From contig JALGVJ010000065.1 in NCBI GenBank assembly GCA_029838195.1, forward strand, positions 1-11,612: 11,612 nucleotides of DNA. Reading direction: 5' to 3'. The stretch comes from Promethearchaeota archaeon (lineage in GTDB: Archaea > Asgardarchaeota > Lokiarchaeia > Sigyniarchaeales > SOKP01). The position numbers and the translations under genes are program-made. The notes under the pieces are model-generated. The model saw only the letters and a list, made by a program, of their open reading frames with translations, searched no databases and was not told the DNA's origin. Position 1 is the first letter of the stretch, and the number at the start of each line of letters is the position of its first letter. Shown one piece after another: positions 540-11,217 of this stretch.

Positions 540-1772
540 ATGACGGAAGCACGGAATAACAATAAAAAGGAAGAACCTTTACTCGTAGATAAGGAAAAAA
601 TTCTAAAAAAAATTGCTACAGCCGTAAATTATTGTTATAATTGCAATAGGTGCGTGATTGCTTGCCCATTATCGCAATTAGACACATTTTATCCACGCGA
701 TTTAATAAATGACTTAAATTTCTTATCTTTAGAAGATGCTTTAGAGAAAAATAACATATGGCAATGCTTGACGTGTGGTTATTGCATGGTATATTGCCCA
801 ATGACCAAAGATGGAGAAGGAGTAAACATTCCCGAATTAATTTTAGAGTTACGAGAGATTTCCAAGAACCAGGTGAAACAGGTAGAAAGAATCTTGCAAT
901 GCGAGACTCATGATGGCATGTTCCCCTTAATTTCTCAAATCATGGCAAATAATCCCCAACCACCTGATAAATTAGAGTTCATTGAAGAAAATAACCTTCA
1001 GGTAAAACAATTTGGTGAATTAGCATATTTTGTAGGGTGTCTGCCCTTGATGAAGGACGTGTTATATAGATCTGAAATCGATTACATTGGCACCAGCAAG
1101 ACTATCATTAGCTTATTAAATGAAAATGGTGTGGAACCCGTCGTGTTAAATGAAAAGTGCTGTGGCCACGATATTTTATGGGGAAAGGGTGATATAGAAA
1201 ATTTCAAGAAATTGGCAGAATATAACGTGAAATTATATAAGGATGCTGGCGTAAAGACGATCATTGTCAGCTGTGCTGAGGGCTATAGAACGTGGAAATA
1301 TGACTACCCAAGATACGTGGATGGCTGTGATTTTGAAATCCTTTATTTTGCCGAATATTTCTTGAAAGAGAATATCCTTGAAAACGTGCGATTTCCTCAA
1401 GATCAAACCATTAAGGTTACTTATCATGATGCTTGTCGTCTTGGACGTTTAGGGGGAAAAGTATATGATGCACCTCGAGAACTTATAAAACAACTACCCA
1501 ATGTAGAATTAATCGAGATGAAAAATAATCGCGATGAGGCCAATTGCTGCGGGGTTACAGCATTTACGGGGTGTAATGAATGCACGCGAGTGTTGCGTCA
1601 AGATCGAATACATCAAGCGATTGAAACGGGAGCAAGTTACTTACTCGTGCCTTGTCCTAAATGTTTAACTCATTTTAATTGTTTTTTAACAGAACCCGGC
1701 AACCCTAAAAAGAAAAAAATAGAAGTAATGGATTTAGCAAATTTTATCGGCAAGCTTCTTTTAATTTCTTAA
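540..1772 (+). CDS. hdrD: HdrD-like (HdrC+HdrB-type fusion) Fe-S oxidoreductase: 2x[4Fe-4S] plus two cysteine-rich CCG domains
   Basis: 410-aa ORF. N-terminal CYNCNRCVIACP and CLTCGYCMVYCP ferredoxin motifs; CCG domain 1 (YFVGC..KCCGH..SCAEG) and CCG domain 2 (YHDAC..NCCG..PCPKC). Family is clear; exact orthology to methanogen HdrD is not established. Confidence 0.85.
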   Translation: MTEARNNNKKEEPLLVDKEKILKKIATAVNYCYNCNRCVIACPLSQLDTFYPRDLINDLNFLSLEDALEKNNIWQCLTCGYCMVYCPMTKDGEGVNIPELILELREISKNQVKQVERILQCETHDGMFPLISQIMANNPQPPDKLEFIEENNLQVKQFGELAYFVGCLPLMKDVLYRSEIDYIGTSKTIISLLNENGVEPVVLNEKCCGHDILWGKGDIENFKKLAEYNVKLYKDAGVKTIIVSCAEGYRTWKYDYPRYVDGCDFEILYFAEYFLKENILENVRFPQDQTIKVTYHDACRLGRLGGKVYDAPRELIKQLPNVELIEMKNNRDEANCCGVTAFTGCNECTRVLRQDRIHQAIETGASYLLVPCPKCLTHFNCFLTEPGNPKKKKIEVMDLANFIGKLLLIS

Positions 1773-1809
1773 AGAAGCAAATAAAGGAGAAAAATCGAGC
1801 AATTTATAT
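1773..1809 (-). terminator. Putative archaeal oligo-U/pyrimidine-rich terminator region of the minus-strand operon
   Basis: 37-bp gap between convergent genes; minus strand reads ...GATTTTTCTCCTTTATTTGCTTCT with no hairpin. Confidence 0.3.
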
Positions 1810-2940
1810 TTAATCAGTTCTGTTCCTTTTCTTTTTCGATTTAAGAGAGACCATCCTATTAAAATTCTTCAATTTTTTTTCCCGCCATTCTCCGAGCTCT
1901 TCTAAGGAAATGGGATATTCTTCAATATACCGCTTTTTTAGCATGGCATCTATTAGTTCTTTCCCTTTTTGCGTGCGAATGATGATCATGGAATATCCTT
2001 TCGGCGCACCTGAAGAACCCACGCTTATATCTGAATATTTGCCAGTAAAATCCACGCATTCAAGACAATGACTTCTCACGGCGGAATCCAATTTTTTTAT
2101 CTCTATTTCATGTTCCTCGCCCGTCTTGGATTGAATGAAAAAATTATTCTTGATGTAGGTCTTTTTCATTTGGGAGGGAGTTAAATGCGTTTCTCGGGTT
2201 AAAATATCATATAATTGCTCATGGTTAAAGTTTTCAAAACAAAATAAACTAATTCCATACTTGATGAGATGAGCTGGCGTGATGTTTAAAAAATGCATTT
2301 TTCTTAGGGCTCTTAGTTGACATGGCGTCCCTACGAAGGCCAAGCGCATGGCATCTATATTATAGATTCCCTTTTCTCTCAATATATCGGCTGAGATGTT
2401 TTTAATATCCTTGAGGGGAAGCATTTGCGGAGATATGGAATATCGTGTTCCTGCCGAATTAATGATCTCCTTCTCATCAAATATTATTTTTGGAATGGGA
2501 ATTAAGTTCTCATCATATTCTGAAACAATGGCTCCATCTATCTCACGCTCCTCAAATAAATACCTCAATATGGTTGAAACTACCCCTCCATCTTGTCCAT
2601 GTTTCTCGATAATAGAATCCATAGTTTTCGCAGCCAAAAAATCGATAATATGGCCCAAATTATCCCCAGCATCATATCTTTCCTCAACCTGAGATAAGAT
2701 GGGCTCAGTTTGGGGGCAGGAATAATAACAAACCCCACATTCCGTGCAATTCTCTTCATTTTTCTGAGATTTGAATTGAGGACGATTTTCTTTCATGGTA
2801 ATGACGTCAAAAGCTTGGACTTCGCAATATGAAACGCACGCACCACATGCCACGCATCTATCTCGATTAACTACCTCCTCCTCTAAATCTTTAAACGTTT
2901 TAACCTTTACTTCTTGTATTTTTTTTTTTGATTCCGTCAT
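1810..2940 (-). CDS. frhB: Coenzyme F420 hydrogenase/dehydrogenase beta-subunit family protein (FrhB/FdhB/FpoF) with N-terminal 2x[4Fe-4S] domain
   Basis: 376-aa ORF. CVACGACVSYC and CTECGVCYYSCP at the N-terminus, then FrhB motifs GQDGGVVSTIL, AGTRYSISP, FVGTPCQ, SLFCFENF, CLECVDFTGKYSDISVGSSG. SD-like GAGCGTG upstream. Confidence 0.9.
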   Translation of the reverse strand: MTESKKKIQEVKVKTFKDLEEEVVNRDRCVACGACVSYCEVQAFDVITMKENRPQFKSQKNEENCTECGVCYYSCPQTEPILSQVEERYDAGDNLGHIIDFLAAKTMDSIIEKHGQDGGVVSTILRYLFEEREIDGAIVSEYDENLIPIPKIIFDEKEIINSAGTRYSISPQMLPLKDIKNISADILREKGIYNIDAMRLAFVGTPCQLRALRKMHFLNITPAHLIKYGISLFCFENFNHEQLYDILTRETHLTPSQMKKTYIKNNFFIQSKTGEEHEIEIKKLDSAVRSHCLECVDFTGKYSDISVGSSGAPKGYSMIIIRTQKGKELIDAMLKKRYIEEYPISLEELGEWREKKLKNFNRMVSLKSKKKRNRTD

Positions 2941-2963
2941 TAAAGCAACACGCTCTTTTCAAG

Positions 2964-3428
2964 TTAACATTCTCTTATTTCAAGTTTCAATAATTTTTTT
3001 GGAAGGGGCGAAGGCCCTAATTTCTTAATTCGCTCTGTAAATTCTCTCACTAGTTCCGCAAATTGTTTTCCTTCACTAGCAGAAATCCATTGTAATCTAA
3101 ATCTATCGGGATGCAGCCCGATCTTTTTTATCAAGTCTTTCACGTGTTCCATCCGTTTTCGGGTGTATTCATTTCCCGAGATGTAATGACAATCACCAAT
3201 ATGACAGCCCGTCACCAAGATCCCATCGATACCACTCTTGAAAGCCTTTAAAATAAACGCAGGCTCTACTCTTCCCGAGCACATGACCCGTATGATTCTT
3301 ATATTGGGAGGATATTGAAATCGTGAGACGCCTGCCAGATCAGCTCCGGCATAAGAGCACCAATTACAACAGAAAGCGAGTATTTTTGGTTCTTTATCAT
3401 TTAACTCTTGACTATTTAATTCGGACAT
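2964..3428 (-). CDS. mvhD: MvhD [2Fe-2S] subunit (methyl-viologen-reducing hydrogenase delta family), canonical copy
   Basis: 154 aa with FCCNWCSYAGADLAG, RVMCSGRV, GCHIGDCHY, WISASEG and LGPSP motifs; directly downstream of hdrA. Confidence 0.96.
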   Translation of the reverse strand: MSELNSQELNDKEPKILAFCCNWCSYAGADLAGVSRFQYPPNIRIIRVMCSGRVEPAFILKAFKSGIDGILVTGCHIGDCHYISGNEYTRKRMEHVKDLIKKIGLHPDRFRLQWISASEGKQFAELVREFTERIKKLGPSPLPKKLLKLEIREC

Positions 3429-3449
3429 GAGTAATGCCTCTTTGATGGT

Positions 3450-6400
3450 TTAAAAATCTATTAAAGTTTCTATCATTTTACTAATTTGGAGGCGAGTAAA
3501 ATTGTTTTGATCAATTGCATTAACTGGGCACTCAGGAACGCAAGCTCCACATCCTTTACAGATTCCTACGTTTATTCGAGCTTTTAAAACCTTAATTTTA
3601 TGGAGTCCCATATTTTTATCAATTTCCATTAAGCTCATAGCGCCATAGGGACAAACTTCGACGCAAATTCCGCATCCGATGCATTTTTCTTCATTAATCG
3701 AGGCTGTAATTCCCTCCACTATCGCCTTACCATTCATTAATAATTTCAAGGCTCTTGAAGCAGCACCTAAAGCTTGACTCATGGATTCTTGAACATTTTT
3801 AGGCCCTTGAGCCGTGCCACATAAAAATACACCATCGGTGGCGAAATCAACGGGTCTTAGCTTCGTGTGAGCTTCTAAAAAGAATCCATTGCTATCTAAG
3901 GGAACTTTTAGCATTTCAGATAATTTTTTGTTTTCTTCAGAGGTTACAAGGGGTGTAGCTAAAATTATTTTATCAAATGTTAGCTTTAATAAGTCATTCG
4001 TGAAAGAATCTTGAACTTCTAAGATTAGACCATTCTGGTCTTCCCTCACCACGGGGGGATGACTTGCATCGTATTGTACGAAATTAACTCCTTTTTCCCG
4101 TGCTAATCTATATTCGAGTTCTTCCGTGTAGGAAACTCGCACGTCCCTATAAAAAATATATATATTTGAATTGGGGAATTTTTCTTTTACTTTTAATGCA
4201 TTTTTAATAGAAGTTCCACAGCAAGTTGCAGAACAATACGTCCGTCCTTGAGGTTCCCGAGAGCCCACGCATTGGATGAAAGCCAACGCTTCTCCATTTT
4301 TTACTTGCCCTGATTCAAGTAAGGCTTCAAATTCCAGATTAGTAAAGACATTTGGATTCTTTTTATAGAGATAATATCCTTCGGGTTTAAATTCATGTCC
4401 TCCCACTGCTACAACGACCGTTCCCACATCAATTAAAGTTTCCTTATCATCGTGCTGAATAGTAGCATGAAAATTTCCTAAAGATCCTTCCACGTTTTTT
4501 ATTACTGAAGAAGTAAACACTTCAATGTGAGGATCTGCTTGAATTTTTTCCGTCATTTTCTCTATTATCGTGGCAGTGGAAAGACCATCATAAGATAGTT
4601 CCTTGAAATTTCTAATAAGGCCTCCCAATTGAGGCTCTTTTTCGACTAAATATACTTTAAAACCCTTTTTTGCGATAGCCAGAGCGGCCGTCATGCCGGA
4701 GATTCCTCCACCAATCACCAACGTAGAAGGTAATATTTCAACTTCGATATCTTGAAGTGGTACTACGAAACGAGATTTTGCTACCGACATCGCTACTTGC
4801 TCCTTCGCTTTTTTAGTGGCTTTATCCGGAACTGCCATGTGAACCCAACTGACTAATTCTCTAATACTCGCAAATTCGACTAAATAAGGATTCAAACCCG
4901 CTTCTCGGCAAGTTGCCCTGAAAAGCGGTAGATGCGTGCGGGGAGTACACGCAGCTATGATAACTCTATTTAAATCGTGTTCATCAATAGCTGATTTAAT
5001 GCTATTTTGTGATTCTTCCGAACACGTGTATAAATTACGTTCCACGTATGCTACATTGGGCAATTTTTCCATCTCTTTAGCTACTTCTTCCACATCCACG
5101 ACACCCGCAATGTTTGAACCGCAATGACATATAAAAACTCCTATTCTGGGAGGATCATCTGGAGATATTACTTTTTCGGGAATTTCAATTTTTATTTCTT
5201 CAGTTTTTACGACGGACGTCCGACTGGCTGCTTTAGCCGCTGCGGCACTAGCTTCCGCAACGGACGTGGAAATGTCTTCGGGACCGTGCGCACATCCACA
5301 GACATATATTCCTGGAACATTCGTTTCGATATTGTTATCGGGTAGTGTTTTAATGAAACCAAATTCATCTTGCTCAATTCCCAAGATTTGGCATAATTCT
5401 TTCATGCCCTTGCTAGGAACTACAGCGGGATATAAAACCACCATGTCCACTTTTTGAAATTGGACTTGTCCCGTTTTAATATCGACGTTTCTAATGATGA
5501 GATCTTTTGTTTCGGGATGCTCATAAATTTTATTCGGCAGTCCCTTAATATATTTTACATTATAATCCTTTTTAGCTTTCTCAATAAATTCTTCATGATA
5601 TTTACCGGGTGCTCGAATGTCATTATAATAGATTAGAATTTCCGTATCGGAGGCATGTTCTTTTGTGATGATGGCTTCCTTAGCGGAATACATGCAGCAA
5701 AATTTGGAACAATAGGGTTTTGAACAAACATCCCTCGAACCCACGCATAAAATACACGCGATTTCATGAGGATGCTTCCTATCATGAGGGCGTACGATTT
5801 CTCCTCCTGTAGGCCCCGAAGCACTCATGATCCGCTCAAATTCTAGCGATGTCAGGACATTAGAATATTTCCCATACCCATAATTTTTCAAAGACGATAT
5901 GTCCATTAAATCAAAACCCGTTGCTACAATTATAGAAGCAACAACAACGGTAACCTCTTCCGATTTCATGGAGAAATCTATTGCTTCTGCCTTGCAATTC
6001 TTAGAACATAGCCCGCAAATCCCATAATTCAAGTGCAAGCATTTTTCCTCATTAATCAGATATGTTGACGGAACCGCTTGGAGAAAAGGAATGTGAGCGG
6101 CGTGCGTTTCCTTTAATCCCACTTCATATTCATTTGAAATGCCCCGAACTGGACAGATTTCTGCACAATTCCCACAACCGGTGCATTTCTTGGCATCAAT
6201 ATAGCGAGCTTTTTTCTTAATAGTAACTTGAAACAACTCCCCCTTGTTTTGGGGGCTCATGGCCACTACTTCTGAATAAGTCAATAATTCTATCCTGGGA
6301 TGTCGGGCGGCTTCGACCATTTTTGGAGCTAAGATGCAAATAGAGCAGTCTAAAGTTGGAAATGTCTTATCTAATTGAGCCATTTTCCCTCCAATTGAAG

Positions 6401-6521
6401 GAAACCGCTCAACCAAATAGACGTGATGACCTTGATCAGCTAAGTCTAATGCGGCAGAAATTCCCGCCACACCTCCTCCTATGACTAAAACTTGACTCCG
6501 TGGATCTAGATTTTCTGGCAT
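3450..6521 (-). CDS. hdrA: Large heterodisulfide reductase subunit A family flavoprotein (two tandem HdrA flavin modules)
   Basis: 1023 aa. GGGVAG Rossmann motif, GGKMAQLDKTFPTLDCSIC, inserted ferredoxin, CVGSRD..YCSKFCCMYSAK; internal RIGVFICHCG..CSEE..AACTP domain; second GGGISG Rossmann with CVGSRE..YCSATCC; LRPVDFATDGVFLCG; C-terminal 2x[4Fe-4S]. Confidence 0.95.
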   Translation of the reverse strand: MPENLDPRSQVLVIGGGVAGISAALDLADQGHHVYLVERFPSIGGKMAQLDKTFPTLDCSICILAPKMVEAARHPRIELLTYSEVVAMSPQNKGELFQVTIKKKARYIDAKKCTGCGNCAEICPVRGISNEYEVGLKETHAAHIPFLQAVPSTYLINEEKCLHLNYGICGLCSKNCKAEAIDFSMKSEEVTVVVASIIVATGFDLMDISSLKNYGYGKYSNVLTSLEFERIMSASGPTGGEIVRPHDRKHPHEIACILCVGSRDVCSKPYCSKFCCMYSAKEAIITKEHASDTEILIYYNDIRAPGKYHEEFIEKAKKDYNVKYIKGLPNKIYEHPETKDLIIRNVDIKTGQVQFQKVDMVVLYPAVVPSKGMKELCQILGIEQDEFGFIKTLPDNNIETNVPGIYVCGCAHGPEDISTSVAEASAAAAKAASRTSVVKTEEIKIEIPEKVISPDDPPRIGVFICHCGSNIAGVVDVEEVAKEMEKLPNVAYVERNLYTCSEESQNSIKSAIDEHDLNRVIIAACTPRTHLPLFRATCREAGLNPYLVEFASIRELVSWVHMAVPDKATKKAKEQVAMSVAKSRFVVPLQDIEVEILPSTLVIGGGISGMTAALAIAKKGFKVYLVEKEPQLGGLIRNFKELSYDGLSTATIIEKMTEKIQADPHIEVFTSSVIKNVEGSLGNFHATIQHDDKETLIDVGTVVVAVGGHEFKPEGYYLYKKNPNVFTNLEFEALLESGQVKNGEALAFIQCVGSREPQGRTYCSATCCGTSIKNALKVKEKFPNSNIYIFYRDVRVSYTEELEYRLAREKGVNFVQYDASHPPVVREDQNGLILEVQDSFTNDLLKLTFDKIILATPLVTSEENKKLSEMLKVPLDSNGFFLEAHTKLRPVDFATDGVFLCGTAQGPKNVQESMSQALGAASRALKLLMNGKAIVEGITASINEEKCIGCGICVEVCPYGAMSLMEIDKNMGLHKIKVLKARINVGICKGCGACVPECPVNAIDQNNFTRLQISKMIETLIDF

Positions 6522-6527
6522 TTTAAT

Positions 6528-6959
6528 TCACGTTTTTCCTCCTGGGTTTATAGGACCTAAAGAGATCAATTGATTAATAAAACTTGTTAAAATAGTGGAA
6601 AATTTACCCCGTTCAGATGGAGAAAAATATTCTAATTTTAAACGTTCTTTTTCAATTCTTAATATATCAAGAATTTTTTGGATTTTAATCACTCGTTCTT
6701 TCGCGCGCTCATTTCCTTTGATATAATGGCAAGTTCCCTCCTCGCAAGCGCAAATTAAGACACCATCGTTTCCTTGATTAAATCCTTCAAGAATGCGTGC
6801 TGGTTCCACGCTTCCTGAACACGCGATTTTTTTCACCTGGATTAAGGGGGTGCAGCTAAATTTGTCAAGAATCAAAATATCATTATCTGCCACCCCGCTC
6901 CAATTACATAAGAAAATTAACACGTTTGGATTAAATTGATTTGAATTCTTTTTAGACAT
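6528..6959 (-). CDS. mvhD: Divergent MvhD-family [2Fe-2S] protein (second copy)
   Basis: 143 aa with FLCNW, IACSGSVEP, GVLICACEEGTCHYIKGN, ERLKLEYFSPSE and LGP, alignable by eye to the canonical copy at 2964-3428; the CSYAGAD segment is replaced. Confidence 0.88.
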   Translation of the reverse strand: MSKKNSNQFNPNVLIFLCNWSGVADNDILILDKFSCTPLIQVKKIACSGSVEPARILEGFNQGNDGVLICACEEGTCHYIKGNERAKERVIKIQKILDILRIEKERLKLEYFSPSERGKFSTILTSFINQLISLGPINPGGKT

Positions 6960-6968
6960 GAATCTTAC

Positions 6969-9317
6969 CTACTCATGTAATGATTTTATAATTGCTGCGA
7001 TTTCTTCATTTGAAAAATATTTTAAATTGATTGCGCCTACGGGGCAAACTCCCACGCATGCTGCACAACCTTCGCATACATCTGATATTACTTTAGACTT
7101 ATATCGAACAAGAGAAATGGAAGGATTATAGGAGTCTCTGAGAGCAGAAAATTCCATTATCTTTTCATTTCGGGTAATGGCATCAAAAACGCAAGCATCT
7201 ATGCAATCCCCGCAGCCAATACATTTATTTTCTTCAATTGAAGCTTTTGGAGTGAGGATTTTCCACCGATATTCCGTTTTTCTCCGTAAATCGTAGCAAG
7301 AAAGCCAAGCATCCCCCGACGAAAGAATCACGGTATCTACCTTAAGAGTAATGATGTTATTTGTTCCTTCATGTTCAAGAATTCTTGCCACGCATGCCTT
7401 CACGTTATCTCTGCATTCCTCGCATATCCCACATTGTAAACAACGCTTCGCTTCTTCAATGGCAGTTTTAAGATCGAAAGTTTTAGTTATTTCTTTAAAA
7501 TTATTGATCCTTTCCTTAACGGGAAGCAATTTAGCATTATTTCTTGGTTTTTTCTGAATAAATTCCACGTTGTCCATCTGATCTATTTTAATAACCCTAC
7601 TTTCCTCGTATTTAACGCCATATTCCGAACCTTGGGGTAAAGATTCTCCCTTAAGATACTTGTCAATTATGGCGGCAACCTTATTTCCACTAGCTATTGC
7701 TTTAATTGCAGAACCCGGTCCCGCAACCACTTCTCCTCCGGCAAATACGCCTTCTATGGAGGTTTGAAAATTGTCATCGACAACAATTCCCCGAGAAATT
7801 TCAATTTTGTTGTTTAAAAATTCAAGATCAGCAGCTTGACCTATGGATACAATGACCATATCGCCTTCGAAAATCTCTTCCGTACAAGCTTCTAAAACTG
7901 GATTAAATCGTCCTTGTTCATCAAATACGGAGCTACAAATTAGAGTTTCTACACCTTTTACTTTCCCATTTTCCCCTACAAAACGTTTGGGACCTCGACT
8001 CGTGTTAAAAATGATACCTTCTTCTTTTGCTTCTTGGACTTCCCACGGTTGAGCTGGAATGATATCTTCGGATTCAAGCATGATGAGTTGTACTTGTTCT
8101 GCCCCTTTTCTTAATGCGCTCCTAGCAACGTCGATGGCAACATCTCCACCTCCGATAACTATTACTTTCTTTTTTACTTCTACTTTTTCTCCCAAGCTAC
8201 ACTTTTTCAAGAAATCAATGGCATATTCTATGTTTTCCAAGTCTTCTCCTTCAATATTCAACTTTCTACTCTTTTGTAGCCCCACTCCCAGGTAGATAGC
8301 ATGAAATTCTTTTCTCAATTGCTCTAAGGATAAACCTGAATCTCCAACGGGCGTATTTGTCTTTATATTAACTCCGTAACTCTTGATGTGATTAATATCT
8401 TGCTCAATAATTTCGGGAGGTAAACGATAATTTGGTACTCCTAATCTCAACATGCCCCCCGCAACAGACTCCTTTTCAAATATCGTCACGTCATATCCCC
8501 TCCGGGCTAATTGATATGCAACGGTCAATCCCGAAGGACCTGACCCCACTACTGCCACTTTTTTATTTTTCTTCTCCTCAATGAAGCGGGGTTCTTCTTT
8601 AAAATGTTCTCTCACGTGATCTGCTACGAATCTTTTTAGCCCACAAATATTAACGGGCTCATCAATCTCGCCTCTATTGCACGCCGCTTCGCAAGGATGA
8701 TTACAAATCCGTCCGATACTGGAAGGAAGTGGACAGCGCTCTTTAATCACTTCTAGGCTTTCTTTAAAATATTTCTTTGCAATTAATGAATTATATTCTT
8801 GAGCTTCTACATGAGCAGGACATTCATGTTCGCATGGTGGGATGTATCTAGGTTCTAATAATATTTTTAGAGCCATGGTCTCGGGAAATTGGGGATAAAT
8901 TTGTTTTAACTCATTGCTCATCGTGTTATCTAGTTTAAAGGATGCTTGATCAATTATCTCCTCCATGCAAATTTCACATGATTCGCATTCTTTTCCTTCG
9001 CCTTTTTGCTCTCCTTTTCTTATTACTGCTTGAAAATGCCCTGGCTTTCCTTCTAAACTAATTACATCCGCATTCGTTATTAATTCAATATTCGGATGGT
9101 CTTTCACTCCTAAGAGCTTAGGAACAAGGAGGCACATCGAACAATCCTTAACCTGAAATCCGAGTTCGGAGCTTTTAATTGCTTCTTCCACAGAATGTCT
9201 AGTCTCTACTAGATATATCTTTAAATTGGATTTCGCTAAATCTAACGCCGCTTTACATCCTGCTATTCCAGCACCCACGATCAATACGGATTGCAATTCT
9301 GGAGTTTTATTTTCCAT
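6969..9317 (-). CDS. Truncated HdrL-like flavoprotein: HdrA N-terminal fragment + GltD/NfnB-type Fe-S/FAD/NAD(P)H oxidoreductase + HdrA-type C-terminal ferredoxin
   Basis: GAGIAG..DCSMC..HPNIELIT (HdrA-like); PPCEHECPAH..GRICNHPCEAACNRG..LKRF, VGSGPSG..GGMLRLGVPNYRLP, IGGGDVAIDVAR (GltD-like); EAKRCLQCG; C-terminal CIGCGDCIDAC and CEGCAACVGVCP. The ORF track starts at GTG 9326; ATG 9317 is preferred because GGGGTGA sits 9 nt upstream of it. Confidence 0.85.
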   Translation of the reverse strand: MENKTPELQSVLIVGAGIAGCKAALDLAKSNLKIYLVETRHSVEEAIKSSELGFQVKDCSMCLLVPKLLGVKDHPNIELITNADVISLEGKPGHFQAVIRKGEQKGEGKECESCEICMEEIIDQASFKLDNTMSNELKQIYPQFPETMALKILLEPRYIPPCEHECPAHVEAQEYNSLIAKKYFKESLEVIKERCPLPSSIGRICNHPCEAACNRGEIDEPVNICGLKRFVADHVREHFKEEPRFIEEKKNKKVAVVGSGPSGLTVAYQLARRGYDVTIFEKESVAGGMLRLGVPNYRLPPEIIEQDINHIKSYGVNIKTNTPVGDSGLSLEQLRKEFHAIYLGVGLQKSRKLNIEGEDLENIEYAIDFLKKCSLGEKVEVKKKVIVIGGGDVAIDVARSALRKGAEQVQLIMLESEDIIPAQPWEVQEAKEEGIIFNTSRGPKRFVGENGKVKGVETLICSSVFDEQGRFNPVLEACTEEIFEGDMVIVSIGQAADLEFLNNKIEISRGIVVDDNFQTSIEGVFAGGEVVAGPGSAIKAIASGNKVAAIIDKYLKGESLPQGSEYGVKYEESRVIKIDQMDNVEFIQKKPRNNAKLLPVKERINNFKEITKTFDLKTAIEEAKRCLQCGICEECRDNVKACVARILEHEGTNNIITLKVDTVILSSGDAWLSCYDLRRKTEYRWKILTPKASIEENKCIGCGDCIDACVFDAITRNEKIMEFSALRDSYNPSISLVRYKSKVISDVCEGCAACVGVCPVGAINLKYFSNEEIAAIIKSLHE

Positions 9318-9326
9318 TAGCTTCAC

Positions 9327-9333
9327 TCACCCC
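9327..9333 (-). promoter_or_regulatory. Archaeal-type Shine-Dalgarno GGGGTGA overlapping the hdrD-like stop codon
   Basis: Minus strand reads AAGGGGTGA-GTGAAGCTA-ATG; complementary to the UCACC part of the 16S 3' end. Confidence 0.6.
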
Positions 9334-10562
9334 TTGGCTCCCTCTGAGCTTCCCAAGCCCATTAATTTAGCAATTAAATTTGTAAGATCAGTTATTTTTA
9401 AATTGGCAAACTCGTCATTCTTTTCTTTCTTTTCATGAAGAAGGCACTTGTAATGAATTTGACACTTGGGGCAGGTTGTTACCAATAAATTAGCCACCTC
9501 TTTCGCCTCCATCAATCTATCTACTTGTAGAGCTTTTGACATGTCATTACAATTTATGAAACAACTCACCCCGCAACAAGGAGCATTCTCCTTGATTCTT
9601 TCCATCTCTTTAAAAATGATGCCATTTTTTTGCATGGCAGTTAAAATTTCTCGAGGAGGCTCGTAAATCTTCATGTGCCTCCCCAATCTACAAGGATCAT
9701 GATACGTAACCTTTTCATGAAAGGTTTCAGGTAATTGAAGTTCATTCTTTCTCAACTTTTCCTCAATGAGTTCAGAAAGATGAATCACATTAAAATTAAT
9801 ATCCTTGACATATTTAGGATAATCCATTTTTAACGTGCGATAACACTCCGCACAAGTAGTAACTATGGTCTCAATACCCAATTCATTGATTAATTTTACA
9901 TTATGTTCAGCCAATTTCTTAAACGTTTCATGATGCCCCTTCCAAAGAGCATCATGACCACAACATTTAATGCCTTCTATTAAAACGGGAGGCGTTTCTA
10001 ATATGGTGCTTAATATCCCAACTGTGTTGCGCAATATTTCCATCAAATTAACATCCAAATAATCAAAAACCACGTCCAAAACGGGTAAACACCCAAAAAA
10101 ATACGCAACCTTCCCTTCATGAGCAATTTCCTGCCCTTTAGGAATCATTTCCTTGGTTATTTTAAACCCACTTGAACTTTTTGCCTGAAGTTCGGTAATG
10201 ATCGTTAAAATCCCGTCATGCGTCTCTTCATATAGTCCGCCTTCGTTTATTAAATATCTCCTCGCTTTCTTAATGAATTCTATGAAATCTACTCCTTGTG
10301 GGCAGTATTCCTGGCATGTCCTGCACGTCAAGCAATATCGGAGCACCTGATCTTCAATCACGCGCTCCTTGATTCCACGACTTCCCAACTTTACAATCTG
10401 ATGAGGATTATACGGAAATTGTTCTGCCACCGGACAGGCGGATGTGCATTTTCCGCAGTGGAAGCAAGTAAATAACGTACTTGCATCATCGCTTTCAAGA
10501 AGATCTTTAATCAAATCGGAGTTAATATCATTACTCGTGATAGAATTAGAATCGCTTGGCAT
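9327..10562 (-). CDS. hdrD: HdrD-like (HdrC+HdrB-type fusion) Fe-S oxidoreductase, first gene of the operon; paralog of 540-1772
   Basis: 411 aa. CFHCGKCTSACP, CLTCRTCQEYCP, ETHDG, YFFGC..KCCGH..TTCAEC, YHDPCRLGR..PCCG..TTCPKC. SD-like GAGCGTG upstream. Confidence 0.85.
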   Translation of the reverse strand: MPSDSNSITSNDINSDLIKDLLESDDASTLFTCFHCGKCTSACPVAEQFPYNPHQIVKLGSRGIKERVIEDQVLRYCLTCRTCQEYCPQGVDFIEFIKKARRYLINEGGLYEETHDGILTIITELQAKSSSGFKITKEMIPKGQEIAHEGKVAYFFGCLPVLDVVFDYLDVNLMEILRNTVGILSTILETPPVLIEGIKCCGHDALWKGHHETFKKLAEHNVKLINELGIETIVTTCAECYRTLKMDYPKYVKDINFNVIHLSELIEEKLRKNELQLPETFHEKVTYHDPCRLGRHMKIYEPPREILTAMQKNGIIFKEMERIKENAPCCGVSCFINCNDMSKALQVDRLMEAKEVANLLVTTCPKCQIHYKCLLHEKKEKNDEFANLKITDLTNLIAKLMGLGSSEGAKG

Positions 10563-11019
10563 AATGATACACGCTCATGATTTAAAATTTTAAAAAAATA
10601 AATTTTTTTTCCAGAAGTTTCAAATAATTAAAAATGTATAATTTTTTGATAACCATGGGAATGATTTATTGCATTATCGATAGAATCGTGCTATGAATTC
10701 TTAATAAATCATGATATTCTCAATGTTATTTGATAAAAAAACTTCATGTATTTTTAATATAATGATTTTATTGTATATACTTACTTTTTAAAAAGAAAAG
10801 ATTTTGAAAGAGAGAGTTGTTCGTGAGAAATAATTGTATTTTTAAGGTAATCCTTTTTTCTGAACTCATTAAAAGCAGGAAATTATTTGGATTTTCTCTG
10901 AAAAAAAGGATTGAACGATTTTGGAATGAATGGTTCTTTTAATTTAAAAAATAGAAAAGTTAAAATGAAAAACTTTAATTATTGTTATCCTAACCTTTAA
11001 TTGAACAGAAAGATCCATC

Positions 11020-11217
11020 CTAAACTTCTCTCCATTCTGCTCCGCATTGGCCACATTTATATTTTTTTCCATACACGCGGGGGTAATCCATAATAATTTG
11101 GCTTTTATCAACCGATTCATAGATCATGTGAGGATTTTCATTATTACATTTGGGGCATTTTCTACGCCCTTCATGTTTTTCAATGGTTAGGATATCGCCC
11201 GAAGATTCTTCTCCCAT
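11020..11217 (-). CDS. Small zinc-ribbon protein (CxxC...CxxC), function unknown
   Basis: 65 aa with CPKC and CGQC pairs, good SD (GGAGTGA, 7 nt before ATG), higher GC than the flanking intergenic DNA. Confidence 0.8.
   Translation of the reverse strand: MGEESSGDILTIEKHEGRRKCPKCNNENPHMIYESVDKSQIIMDYPRVYGKKYKCGQCGAEWREV

Follow-up and report, generated by a model that had tools for sequence, protein, structure and literature searches.

Lokiarchaeia carry unusually many paralogues of heterodisulfide reductase (Hdr), MvhD and FrhB proteins, yet the genome studied here lacks methanogenesis genes, which raises the question of what such proteins do in these archaea. The question is posed by an entire 11,612-nucleotide (11.6-kb) contig, here called the window, of a Promethearchaeota (Lokiarchaeia-type) metagenome-assembled genome (MAG; G000, contig C30; 4.5 Mb, 94 contigs, 96.6% complete, 7.9% contaminated). 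Positions 540–10562 of the window are filled by seven open reading frames (ORFs), namely six minus-strand genes forming the operon hdrD1-hdrL-mvhDa-hdrA-mvhDb-frhB and one convergent plus-strand gene, hdrD2. With a probability of about 0.55, the operon encodes one soluble, hydrogenase-independent Hdr-type machine in which an F420 arm and an NADH arm are mounted on one tandem HdrA of asymmetric build. That a complex forms and bifurcates electrons, and on which substrates and in which direction it works, is what we infer in the following from the make-up of the proteins and their relatives. The roles of these enzymes bear on Asgard physiology and on hydrogen- and electron-transfer models of eukaryogenesis.

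Pfam and NCBIfam searches bear out all seven gene labels. The ORFs, the tight spacing (0–23 nt) and the convergent second hdrD reported in a preliminary description, which had been made from the letters of the DNA, were thereby confirmed. From hdrD1 to frhB, the co-oriented genes are separated by 0, 9, 6, 21 and 23 nt, and the convergent spacer between frhB and hdrD2 measures 37 nt (Table 1). No convincing membrane segment was detected in any of the seven proteins, the top-scoring hydrophobic stretches being FAD (flavin adenine dinucleotide) Rossmann strands, and all seven are predicted to be soluble. The window contains no further ORF of at least 80 residues and thus no cytochrome b subunit HdrE beside hdrD, as an HdrDE enzyme would have. 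Neither the window nor the flanks of the syntenic locus in genome G238 contains a molybdopterin- or FdhA-like ORF that could provide an ElpA/FdhA-type scaffold. Despite the NfnB-like core of HdrL, no FNR-like NfnA partner gene was found in the window by Pfam. No hydrogenase stands near the genes. Because the whole window is one short contig, a hydrogenase-free neighborhood holds there for a flank of only ~0.5–1 kb, which the syntenic G238 locus extends, being free of hydrogenase for ~10 kb upstream and ~5.6 kb downstream. The earlier claim that the cluster lacks hydrogenase, FdhA and HdrE is accordingly correct for the window, within that reach. Scans of the window for transfer RNAs and Rfam families gave no match.

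Table 1. Coordinates of the window's features and of related features at other loci
Sequence	Feature	Position	Strand	Length and remarks
Window	hdrD2	540–1772	+	410 residues; converges on the operon
Window	fdx-frhB	1810–2940	-	376 residues; last gene of the operon
Window	mvhD-b	2964–3428	-	154 residues
Window	hdrA (tandem)	3450–6521	-	1023 residues
Window	mvhD-a	6528–6959	-	143 residues
Window	hdrL	6969–9326	-	785 residues
Window	hdrD1	9327–10562	-	411 residues; first gene of the operon
Window	candidate BRE/TATA promoter (BRE, transcription factor B recognition element)	10563..10640	-	AT-rich; A/T tract ~20–45 nt before the hdrD1 ATG
Window	small ORF	11020–11217	-	65 residues; two CxxC pairs, zinc-ribbon-like; no Pfam match; in the AT-rich region upstream of the operon
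G249 (L070)	HdrL-MvhD fusion, then MetV-MetF	9344–13738		fusion of 910 residues
G238 (L031)	flavodoxin/2x[4Fe-4S] fusion	7635–8450	-	divergent from the operon's first gene
G238 (L031)	aldehyde:ferredoxin oxidoreductase	19276–21759		just past the FrhB end
G165 (L083)	aldehyde:ferredoxin oxidoreductase	10663–13115		just past the FrhB end
G000, C76 (L096)	Moorella-type Hdr set	24160–30803
G000, C42 (L097)	Hdr cluster with FlxA-like and FrhB proteins	~71224–84027

The F420 arm would consist of FrhB and MvhD-b. FrhB begins with a 2x[4Fe-4S] ferredoxin domain (residues 29–39 and 65–75), followed by an FrhB/FdhB-type FAD/F420 oxidoreductase domain (Pfam FrhB_FdhB_C, E 1e-36; FrhB_FdhB_N, E 2e-17; two Fer4 matches). 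Its closest solved relative is FwdI (8RJA_E), matched over the full length (E 1.2e-56), and the next ranks are the zeta subunit of carbon monoxide dehydrogenase (CODH; 8RIU_B, E 3.8e-38) and then Fsr and FrhB chains. All of these top relatives are F420-reactive; the Hdr-associated FdhB chains match weakly (E 9e-14 to 5e-7). F420 coupling of the enzymes to which FwdI and the CODH zeta subunit of Ca. Ethanoperedens thermophilum belong has been shown in assays (8RJA, 8RIU; PMC11493965). Both share with the window protein the 2x[4Fe-4S] ferredoxin and FAD/[4Fe-4S] F420-reductase domains and the character of a bolt-on module wiring another enzyme to F420, but they are attached to formylmethanofuran dehydrogenase or CODH rather than routed via MvhD and HdrA. 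MvhD-b is a canonical MvhD/FlpD adaptor with the complete cysteine set (C20, 21, 24, 50, 75 and 80; Pfam FlpD, E 6.6e-59). Additionally, F420 synthesis is encoded in the genome, as an F420 port presupposes: C38 carries both CofD and CofE, another copy of CofE is found at a different site, and C92 has CofG with a CofH-like gene beside it; CofD, CofE and CofG score above their cut-offs. The sequence evidence makes FrhB a credible F420 port, in line with the role first proposed for it.

The NAD(H) arm would be formed by HdrL and MvhD-a. HdrL has been defined as an HdrA-like protein fused to a glutamate-synthase-small-chain-like NAD(P)H-binding domain, with mvhD next to it (Strittmatter et al. 2009, PMC2702500), and the window gene has both the HdrA-like and the GltD-like NAD(P)H domain, with mvhD-a 9 nt on. 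The label "HdrL-like" was therefore apt, although the protein is more precisely a truncated HdrA into which an NfnB-like part is inserted and which ends in a 2x[4Fe-4S] domain. In the family searches, it matched models of the GltD/NfnB type. It opens with a remnant of the HdrA-type FAD Rossmann domain (GAGIAG 18–23, DCSMC 61–65), in which residues 12–160 match HdrA 144–291. An NfnB/GltD-type flavoprotein follows at ~160–650, with the FAD motif GSGPSG at 261–266 and the dinucleotide site GGGDVA at 392–397, then MLES at 416–419. A short HdrA strand leads into the C-terminal ferredoxin domain (702–712 and 751–761). Among solved structures, the matches are 9BOV_A (1.9e-112), 9N5U_A ("NfnA"), 8OH5_C and NfnI (5JCA_L, 1e-76), and solved HdrA chains match over residues 12–165 only. 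The likeness to NfnAB/NfnI (4YLF, 5JCA) and to Bfu-type proteins (8OH5_C, 9BOV_A, 9N5U_A) lies in this core, whose FAD fold is of the NfnB/GltD type and which has two [4Fe-4S] clusters besides a dinucleotide site. In contrast to NfnAB/NfnI, the window has no NfnA partner, and the HdrL core sits inside an HdrA remnant, carries the C-terminal ferredoxin domain and has MLES in place of YRR. An F420-dependent glutamate synthase built from FrhB and a GltD-like protein was considered and rejected, since a GltB-type large subunit is missing and the GltD-like stretch, of NfnB type, sits inside HdrA.

In this fold, the 2'-phosphate of NADPH is bound by a pair of arginines, and NADH is favored when the second strand ends in an acidic residue. 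NADPH-type relatives have YRR, and YRR(S/T) occupies the MLES position in the 1648-residue fused relatives described below and in the genome's own GltD paralogue. All seven examined members of the HdrL orthogroup, the window protein and its six closest orthologues, instead have (M/T)LES(E/D) after GGGDVA. Because this acidic motif stands in place of YRR, the HdrL lineage is suggested to prefer NADH over NADPH. HdrL, the only copy in the genome, is thus a credible NAD(H) port, as initially assumed.

Each port appears to have its own adaptor. MvhD-a is a divergent MvhD/FlpD adaptor (Pfam FlpD, E 1.8e-33) in which the CNWC pair is reduced to CNWS. It is ~35% identical to MvhD-b, and four cysteines are invariant across both clades in the alignment. 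In the MvhD tree, the a-clade follows HdrL and the b-clade follows FrhB, each with 100/100 support. MvhD-a groups with the MvhDs adjoining HdrL in G238, G175 and G228 (100/100), and MvhD-b clusters with the MvhDs that precede FrhB orthologues in other Lokiarchaeia, to which it is 62–80% identical. These two clades agree with the original suggestion of one adaptor per port. The two FlpD-family genes flank hdrA, so the [2Fe-2S] adaptor of HdrA-based bifurcating complexes is present on both sides.

The central subunit was correctly assigned to the HdrA family (NCBIfam HdrA2, 999 bits), but the preliminary description missed that it is a tandem, or double, HdrA. It aligns in three segments with M. 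wolfeii HdrA (5ODC_A, E 4e-192): residues 10–384 correspond to M. wolfeii 145–512 (FAD domain with inserted ferredoxin domain), 457–606 to 3–152 (N-terminal cluster domain) and 879–1020 to 516–649 (C-terminal ferredoxin domain). Half 1 (~8–445) has a thioredoxin-reductase-like FAD domain (GGGVAG 15–20), the Cys194/197 equivalents (DCSIC 58–62), the inserted ferredoxin domain (from C113–C123) and a CxxC...CxxxCC cluster motif (256–276), without N- and C-terminal domains. Half 2 supplies the N-terminal cluster domain (457–590, CHCGSNI 465–471), a second FAD domain (GGGISG 604–609, CSATCC 763–768) and the C-terminal 2x[4Fe-4S] domain (947–998), and lacks a Cys197 equivalent and the inserted ferredoxin domain. 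Overall, the protein keeps the FAD domain and iron-sulfur ligands of bifurcating complexes, with both FAD motifs, both HdrBC-facing cluster motifs and one each of Cys197 and the N-terminal, inserted-ferredoxin and C-terminal ferredoxin domains. The fused HdrAs of anaerobic methanotrophic archaea (ANME) and Moorella likewise have complementary halves, which were read as a built-in heterodimer (PMC9012536). By analysis, the window HdrA appears to be a tandem pseudo-dimer that forms its own asymmetric "dimer".

The catalytic subunit with two CCG domains and an HdrC-type dicluster is present as fused HdrD instead of separate HdrB and HdrC, and in two versions. HdrD1, a soluble HdrC-HdrB fusion, has two CxxCxxCxxxC motifs (33–43, 77–87) and two complete CCG motifs (C158...CCG200–202...CAEC237–240 and C291...CCG329–331...CPKC364–367; Pfam CCG, E 2e-20, twice, and Fer4_8). 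HdrD2, of the same build and 34% identical to HdrD1 (Pfam CCG, E 4e-26, twice, and a 4Fe-4S dicluster), lacks the last cysteine of the first CCG motif (CAEG 245–248), the second being complete; CAEG and an extra conserved cysteine are consistent features of HdrD2-type proteins. The best NCBIfam match of both is TfrB, far below the cut-off. A search of the genome did not find McrA, ComA or DsrC, the first two answering the initial call to examine the host for mcr and coenzyme M genes. Since the host has no Mcr, CoM-S-S-CoB is unlikely as a substrate.

How these parts might work together has direct experimental precedent in Elp-Hdr, where F420H2 is oxidized at an FdhB-family FAD and electrons pass via an MvhD homologue to the bifurcating HdrA FAD (PMC12350162); for this reason we propose FrhB-MvhD-HdrA wiring. 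The FrhB FAD would exchange hydride with F420, and single electrons would travel via the FrhB [4Fe-4S] clusters and the MvhD-b [2Fe-2S] cluster to HdrA, on the model of the characterized Elp-Hdr and Fdh-Hdr complexes. The HdrL/MvhD-a arm would carry out the same exchange with NAD(H) at its NfnB-type FAD, and both arms could feed or drain HdrA. The HdrA flavin would be the place where electron pairs part or, when the reaction runs backward, join. The low-potential exit would be a ferredoxin-type acceptor reached via the single inserted ferredoxin domain, and the high-potential exit would be the CCG-cluster sites of HdrD1 and/or HdrD2, reducing a disulfide or similar acceptor. A bolder version, in which the tandem HdrA holds the F420 and NADH arms at once and couples F420, NAD, ferredoxin and thiol/disulfide in one particle, seems to us rather unlikely. 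If it were true, the particle could act as an Nfn-like F420/NAD/ferredoxin coupler substituting for the unfound Fno and could have two flavin bifurcation sites in series. It would then stand at the center of redox metabolism in Loki-type Asgard archaea, whose energy metabolism bears on syntrophy models of eukaryote origin.

The recurrence of the arrangement was examined by searching 400 Asgard species genomes (399 besides G000) for HdrL, a phylum-wide search that replaced an exact-peptide contig scan yielding one true orthologue. Close HdrL orthologues (54–65% identity) were identified in six genomes: G238, G175, G128, G230, G249 and G228. The first of these (Promethearchaeota YT_039) has the same six genes in the same order, HdrD1-HdrL-MvhDa-HdrA-MvhDb-FrhB, at 46–74% amino acid identity and without hdrD2, a recurrence which speaks against chance as the source of the arrangement. 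In G175, the series HdrD2-HdrD1-HdrL-MvhDa-HdrA runs to where the contig stops, and G228 has HdrD1, an HdrL::HdrA fusion, MvhD, FrhB, HdrA and MvhD. Fused HdrL forms of ~1650 residues and 48–49% identity occur in many genomes of the window's family: in G259 and G260, HdrD2 is followed by a 1648-residue HdrL-HdrA-HdrA-MvhD protein and FrhB, and in G264, G182 and G261 by the same fusion without FrhB. The complete six-gene order is thus found in one other species, and variants, including the 1648-residue fusion with FrhB, in three more, so that the neighborhood check suggested at the outset showed the order conserved or rebuilt in several Lokiarchaeia. The HdrL-HdrA fusions argue for physical association of the parts. 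In G230 (L069) and G249, a 910-residue HdrL-MvhD fusion, 54% identical to the window HdrL, precedes MetV-MetF, which marks HdrL-MvhD as a portable module; the gene content suggests an NADH-linked methylene-tetrahydropterin reductase.

The FrhB side has a much wider distribution. The family comprises 135 genomes, of which 84 have an orthologue of FrhB (at least 45% identity, most 50–62%). Fourteen loci were inspected; in 13 (all but G161), the gene stands beside a tandem HdrA, mostly directly after MvhD-b and tandem HdrA. An HdrD2-type gene adjoins in eight of the 14 and heads the cluster in seven; in G187, G204, G188, G216 and G184 it lies immediately 5' of HdrA, and in G259 and G260 it precedes the HdrL-HdrA fusion. 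In G162, the other species of the window's genus, hdrD2 converges on frhB-mvhD-hdrA exactly as at the window's left end, and HdrL is absent. HdrD2 orthologues (58–74% identity) thus head or face the HdrA-MvhD-FrhB cassette in G162 and the five genomes named before it, and also head HdrL-HdrA fusions in G264, G182, G259 and G260. HdrD1 orthologues (61–66% identity), for their part, adjoin HdrL in G238, G175 and G228. The convergent hdrD2 is therefore the usual partner of the FrhB cassette, a partnership overlooked in the preliminary description.

The trees place the window FrhB and MvhD-b in the orthogroups of this common cassette, and the window HdrA with the HdrL-linked HdrAs of G238 and G228 (100/100), not with the HdrAs of the common FrhB cassette. 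On sequence grounds, two cassettes appear to have merged in the operon, a Loki F420 cassette that is common (HdrD2-tandem HdrA-MvhD-FrhB) and a rarer HdrL cassette (HdrD1-HdrL-MvhD-HdrA). Comparable mergers exist both as separate genes and as fusions. Within their orthogroup, the FrhBs linked to HdrL do not form a single clade, so the FrhB-HdrL pairing was assembled or kept more than once. An assembly chimera as the source of the merged operon was rejected, because the same order occurs independently in G238 and the same hdrD2/frhB convergent junction in G162. Logan contig pieces of 200–770 bp from four metagenomes span the hdrD2/frhB, hdrL/hdrD1 and mvhD-b/hdrA junctions but are too short to prove that the operon is continuous from end to end. 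Longer contigs (33 kb and 46 kb) encode FrhB and HdrL in identical or nearly identical form.

Several findings weigh against a single two-armed machine. The six-gene form is rare, with close HdrL orthologues (at least 54% identity) in only 6 of the 399 other genomes, and the HdrD2/FrhB-MvhD-HdrA set of G162, which lacks HdrL, indicates that the two modules clearly work apart too. HdrL is without most of the HdrA flavin domain, which complicates any model of its docking, and MvhD-a is highly divergent, sitting on a long branch with one CNWC cysteine lost. F420 and NAD are nearly isopotential, so there is no obvious energetic gain in using both as donors. With McrA, ComA and DsrC not found, no candidate disulfide is evident. 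Furthermore, the sulfate reducers that host clusters of HdrL with FdhB-like proteins are not known F420 producers. No F420 use is described for the bacteria of PMC2702500 and PMC5947623, and the occurrence of the pair there means that an FrhB fold alone is no proof of F420 use.

A first rival reading is that there are two alternative complexes, an NADH-linked HdrD1-HdrL-MvhDa-HdrA and an F420H2-linked HdrD2-HdrA-MvhDb-FrhB, with HdrA shared or present in two populations. Each would bifurcate or confurcate in the ordinary way, with ferredoxin and a disulfide as partners, and the co-location would reflect cassette merger and co-regulation instead of chemistry at both ports at once. This explanation survives best among the alternatives, and we still consider it unlikely. 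It fits the six genomes in which HdrD2-HdrA-MvhD-FrhB stands alone (G187, G204, G188, G216, G184 and G162), the three in which HdrD2 accompanies the HdrL-HdrA-MvhD fusion without FrhB (G264, G182 and G261), the separate HdrD and MvhD types of each cassette, and the position of the window HdrA in the HdrL-linked clade outside the common FrhB-cassette clade. However, a single HdrA gene serves both arms in the window and in G238, and in G259 and G260 the fused HdrL-HdrA-HdrA-MvhD followed by FrhB places both ports on one polypeptide scaffold. Moreover, Hdr dimers that bear Fdh and Vhu arms together are documented in Methanococcus maripaludis, according to the work cited in PMC9012536. The single machine with both arms on one tandem HdrA is also favored by a second cluster of the same genome, on C42, in which an NAD(P)H-type flavoprotein is paired with an FrhB paralogue, two MvhDs and a tandem HdrA.

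The operon could alternatively serve cofactor balance, as an F420H2:NAD+ transhydrogenase or an Nfn-like F420/NAD/ferredoxin coupler in which HdrA and the MvhDs merely wire the two flavoprotein ports together and HdrD is minor or regulatory. We hold this to be distinctly unlikely. For Fno (npdG), a single family search of the 96.6%-complete genome returned only sub-threshold matches (E ~5e-4), with no match among the window proteins, which would leave room for such an enzyme; the negative nevertheless comes from one family search, made in a MAG. Any transhydrogenase role would be a functional analogy to Fno and not a matter of kinship with it. NfnB, the type to which the HdrL flavoprotein belongs, is the subunit that bifurcates in Nfn, and in the fused forms the NfnB module takes the place of, or splits, the inserted ferredoxin domain, which belongs to the low-potential branch of HdrA. 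A Korarchaeia FrhB-MvhD-HdrA set has also been proposed as a ferredoxin:F420 oxidoreductase (PMC10667645). Conversely, the retention of two HdrD genes with intact CCG motifs argues for a real substrate at the CCG site, and a plain transhydrogenase between isopotential carriers would need no such machine.

CCG proteins also work in the TfrB (fumarate), GlpC, LldEF and GlcF systems. That the labels mislead altogether, with FrhB being only an FAD/iron-sulfur relay or acting on another substrate, the HdrDs not being disulfide reductases and the operon encoding some other oxidoreductase that borrows Hdr wiring, is very improbable: FdhB-like genes do accompany HdrL, MvhD and HdrABC in sulfate reducers (PMC2702500, PMC5947623), TfrB does head the sub-threshold matches of both HdrDs and McrA, ComA and DsrC were not found, but the closest solved FrhB relatives are all F420 enzymes, F420 biosynthesis genes are present, and neither the operon nor the G238 flanks contain a fumarate reductase, glycerol-3-phosphate dehydrogenase or lactate dehydrogenase flavoprotein partner.

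Known systems resemble the operon in parts. ElpABC-HdrABC of Methanothermobacter marburgensis (PMC12350162) and FdhAB-MvhD-HdrABC of Methanospirillum hungatei (7BKB) are likewise soluble and hydrogenase-independent. The window differs from them in having no ElpA/FdhA scaffold, an FrhB of FwdI/FpoF-type N-terminal ferredoxin architecture, a fused tandem HdrA, HdrB and HdrC fused as HdrD in two versions, an extra HdrL/MvhD arm and a host in which Mcr was not found. The bacterial clusters come close in composition. Locus VIII of Desulfobacterium autotrophicum comprises hdrL, hdrA, mvhD, an fdhB gene, hdrCB and hdrD (2009, PMC2702500), and Sfum_0819–0824 of Syntrophobacter fumaroxidans, encoding HdrABC, an FdhB-like iron-sulfur protein, MvhD and HdrL, was detected by proteomics and proposed to confurcate (PMC5947623). 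Both unite HdrL, MvhD, an FdhB-like protein, HdrA and CCG subunits (HdrBC, and HdrD too in locus VIII) without a hydrogenase or FdhA catalytic subunit, and confurcation or bifurcation has been suggested for this set. They differ in their bacterial hosts, the single HdrA, the one MvhD and a larger HdrL that keeps more of HdrA and is less than ~45% identical to the window protein, and in that DsrC, the acceptor proposed there, was not found in G000.

ANME-1 archaea have tandem or fused HdrA, HdrA-NfnB insertions (HdrA9–11) and FrhB-containing hdrA clusters (Chadwick et al. 2022, PMC9012536). The window shares with them the complementary loss of the N-terminal domain and Cys197 in the fused halves, the NfnB-like module at the inserted ferredoxin domain and FrhB paralogues in hdrA clusters that lack FdhA; that paper, too, arrives at complexes that are asymmetric and have two flavin sites. 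In the window, by contrast, the halves are reversed (the Cys197 half first), HdrL is separate, truncated and equipped with its own MvhD, the acceptor subunit is HdrD and the host is a non-methane-metabolizing Asgard archaeon. No cluster with both an NfnB-type and an FrhB-type module was found described in that paper. MetFV-HdrABC-MvhD of Moorella thermoacetica, whose HdrA is also a fused double, and FlxABCD-HdrABC of Desulfovibrio are hydrogenase-free and NADH-linked, with MvhD or FlxD as adaptor, but the window lacks MetFV and FlxABC and its NAD(H) module is of the HdrL/NfnB type. A published census of Loki and Thor archaea includes duplicated HdrA-MvhD fusions (PMC11237513).

Against this background, the operon is an informative variant of a known theme, of which the parts and similar clusters have already been described. 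The preliminary description, whose observation is confirmed and whose interpretation is partly supported, overstated the novelty given the like clusters in PMC2702500, PMC5947623, PMC9012536 and PMC11237513. It was right in that our literature search found no description of this Asgard operon and no characterized enzyme with both modules. What is new is the origin by merger of two cassettes, the two MvhD lineages tied to their own modules, the NADH-type motif of HdrL and the wide occurrence of a four-gene F420 cassette in Lokiarchaeia. The seven-protein set and the simpler four-protein set are clonable targets for studying F420H2- or NADH-driven bifurcation and the Hdr substrate in non-methanogens.

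The host genome offers a rich redox context, with 11 FrhB matches, 13 MvhD matches and at least eight Hdr-type clusters. Its sole [NiFe] hydrogenase, on C82, adjoins its own HdrA-MvhD fusion gene. Look-alikes of MetFV-Hdr and Flx-Hdr are carried on C76 and C42, respectively. The former comprises a tandem HdrA-MvhD fusion, HdrC, HdrB, MetV (DUF5981) and MetF (MTHFR), a Moorella-type set. The latter consists of co-oriented, tightly spaced genes for HdrC, HdrB, a split HdrA, MvhD, a tandem HdrA, MvhD, two iron-sulfur proteins (one Fer4_22), an FlxA-like protein (FAD_binding_6, NAD_binding_1 and DHODB iron-sulfur domains) and an FrhB paralogue. For Mer, only a luciferase-like protein was found in the genome (149 bits against a cut-off of 349), and FdhA-like molybdoenzymes occur elsewhere in it, below cut-off and not near the operon. 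On C1, C84 and C75 (L025–L028), several MvhD and adjacent HdrA paralogues contain one or two in-frame TGA codons inside conserved matches, which fits selenocysteine-containing VhuD-like proteins; the window genes have no in-frame TGA.

Further observations concern the surroundings of the cassette in other genomes. Just past its FrhB end, G238 and G165 carry a gene for aldehyde:ferredoxin oxidoreductase, followed in G238 by a small protein confirmed as a 4Fe-4S protein. Genes of equal size stand at the place of this pair in G277, G161 and G151. The cassette may thus be linked to ferredoxin-reducing aldehyde oxidation. The flavodoxin/2x[4Fe-4S] fusion encoded on the other side of the G238 operon is a candidate low-potential electron carrier. 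In five Lokiarchaeia (L085, L086, L090, L092 and L093), the HdrD2-HdrA-MvhD-FrhB cassette lies 2–4 kb from a second cluster comprising an FrhB paralogue, an 849-residue HdrA-MvhD fusion and a gene of ~250 residues, which stands where the hydrogenase small subunit (257 residues) stands in the C82 cluster of G000. If that gene encodes a hydrogenase, the F420 cassette is not always distant from one.

Within the window, the spacers were read by eye. The AT-rich spacers before hdrD1 and hdrD2 could hold archaeal promoters; the evidence is weak because the whole spacer is AT-rich, the GC fraction being 0.27–0.32 upstream of hdrD1 and ~0.39 in the genes. The contig ends (1–388 and 11253–11612) have 5–10 times the depth of the operon in the Logan contigs of the four metagenomes. 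Repeated or shared sequence is the probable reason for this depth and would account for the assembly break that gave rise to an 11.6-kb contig.

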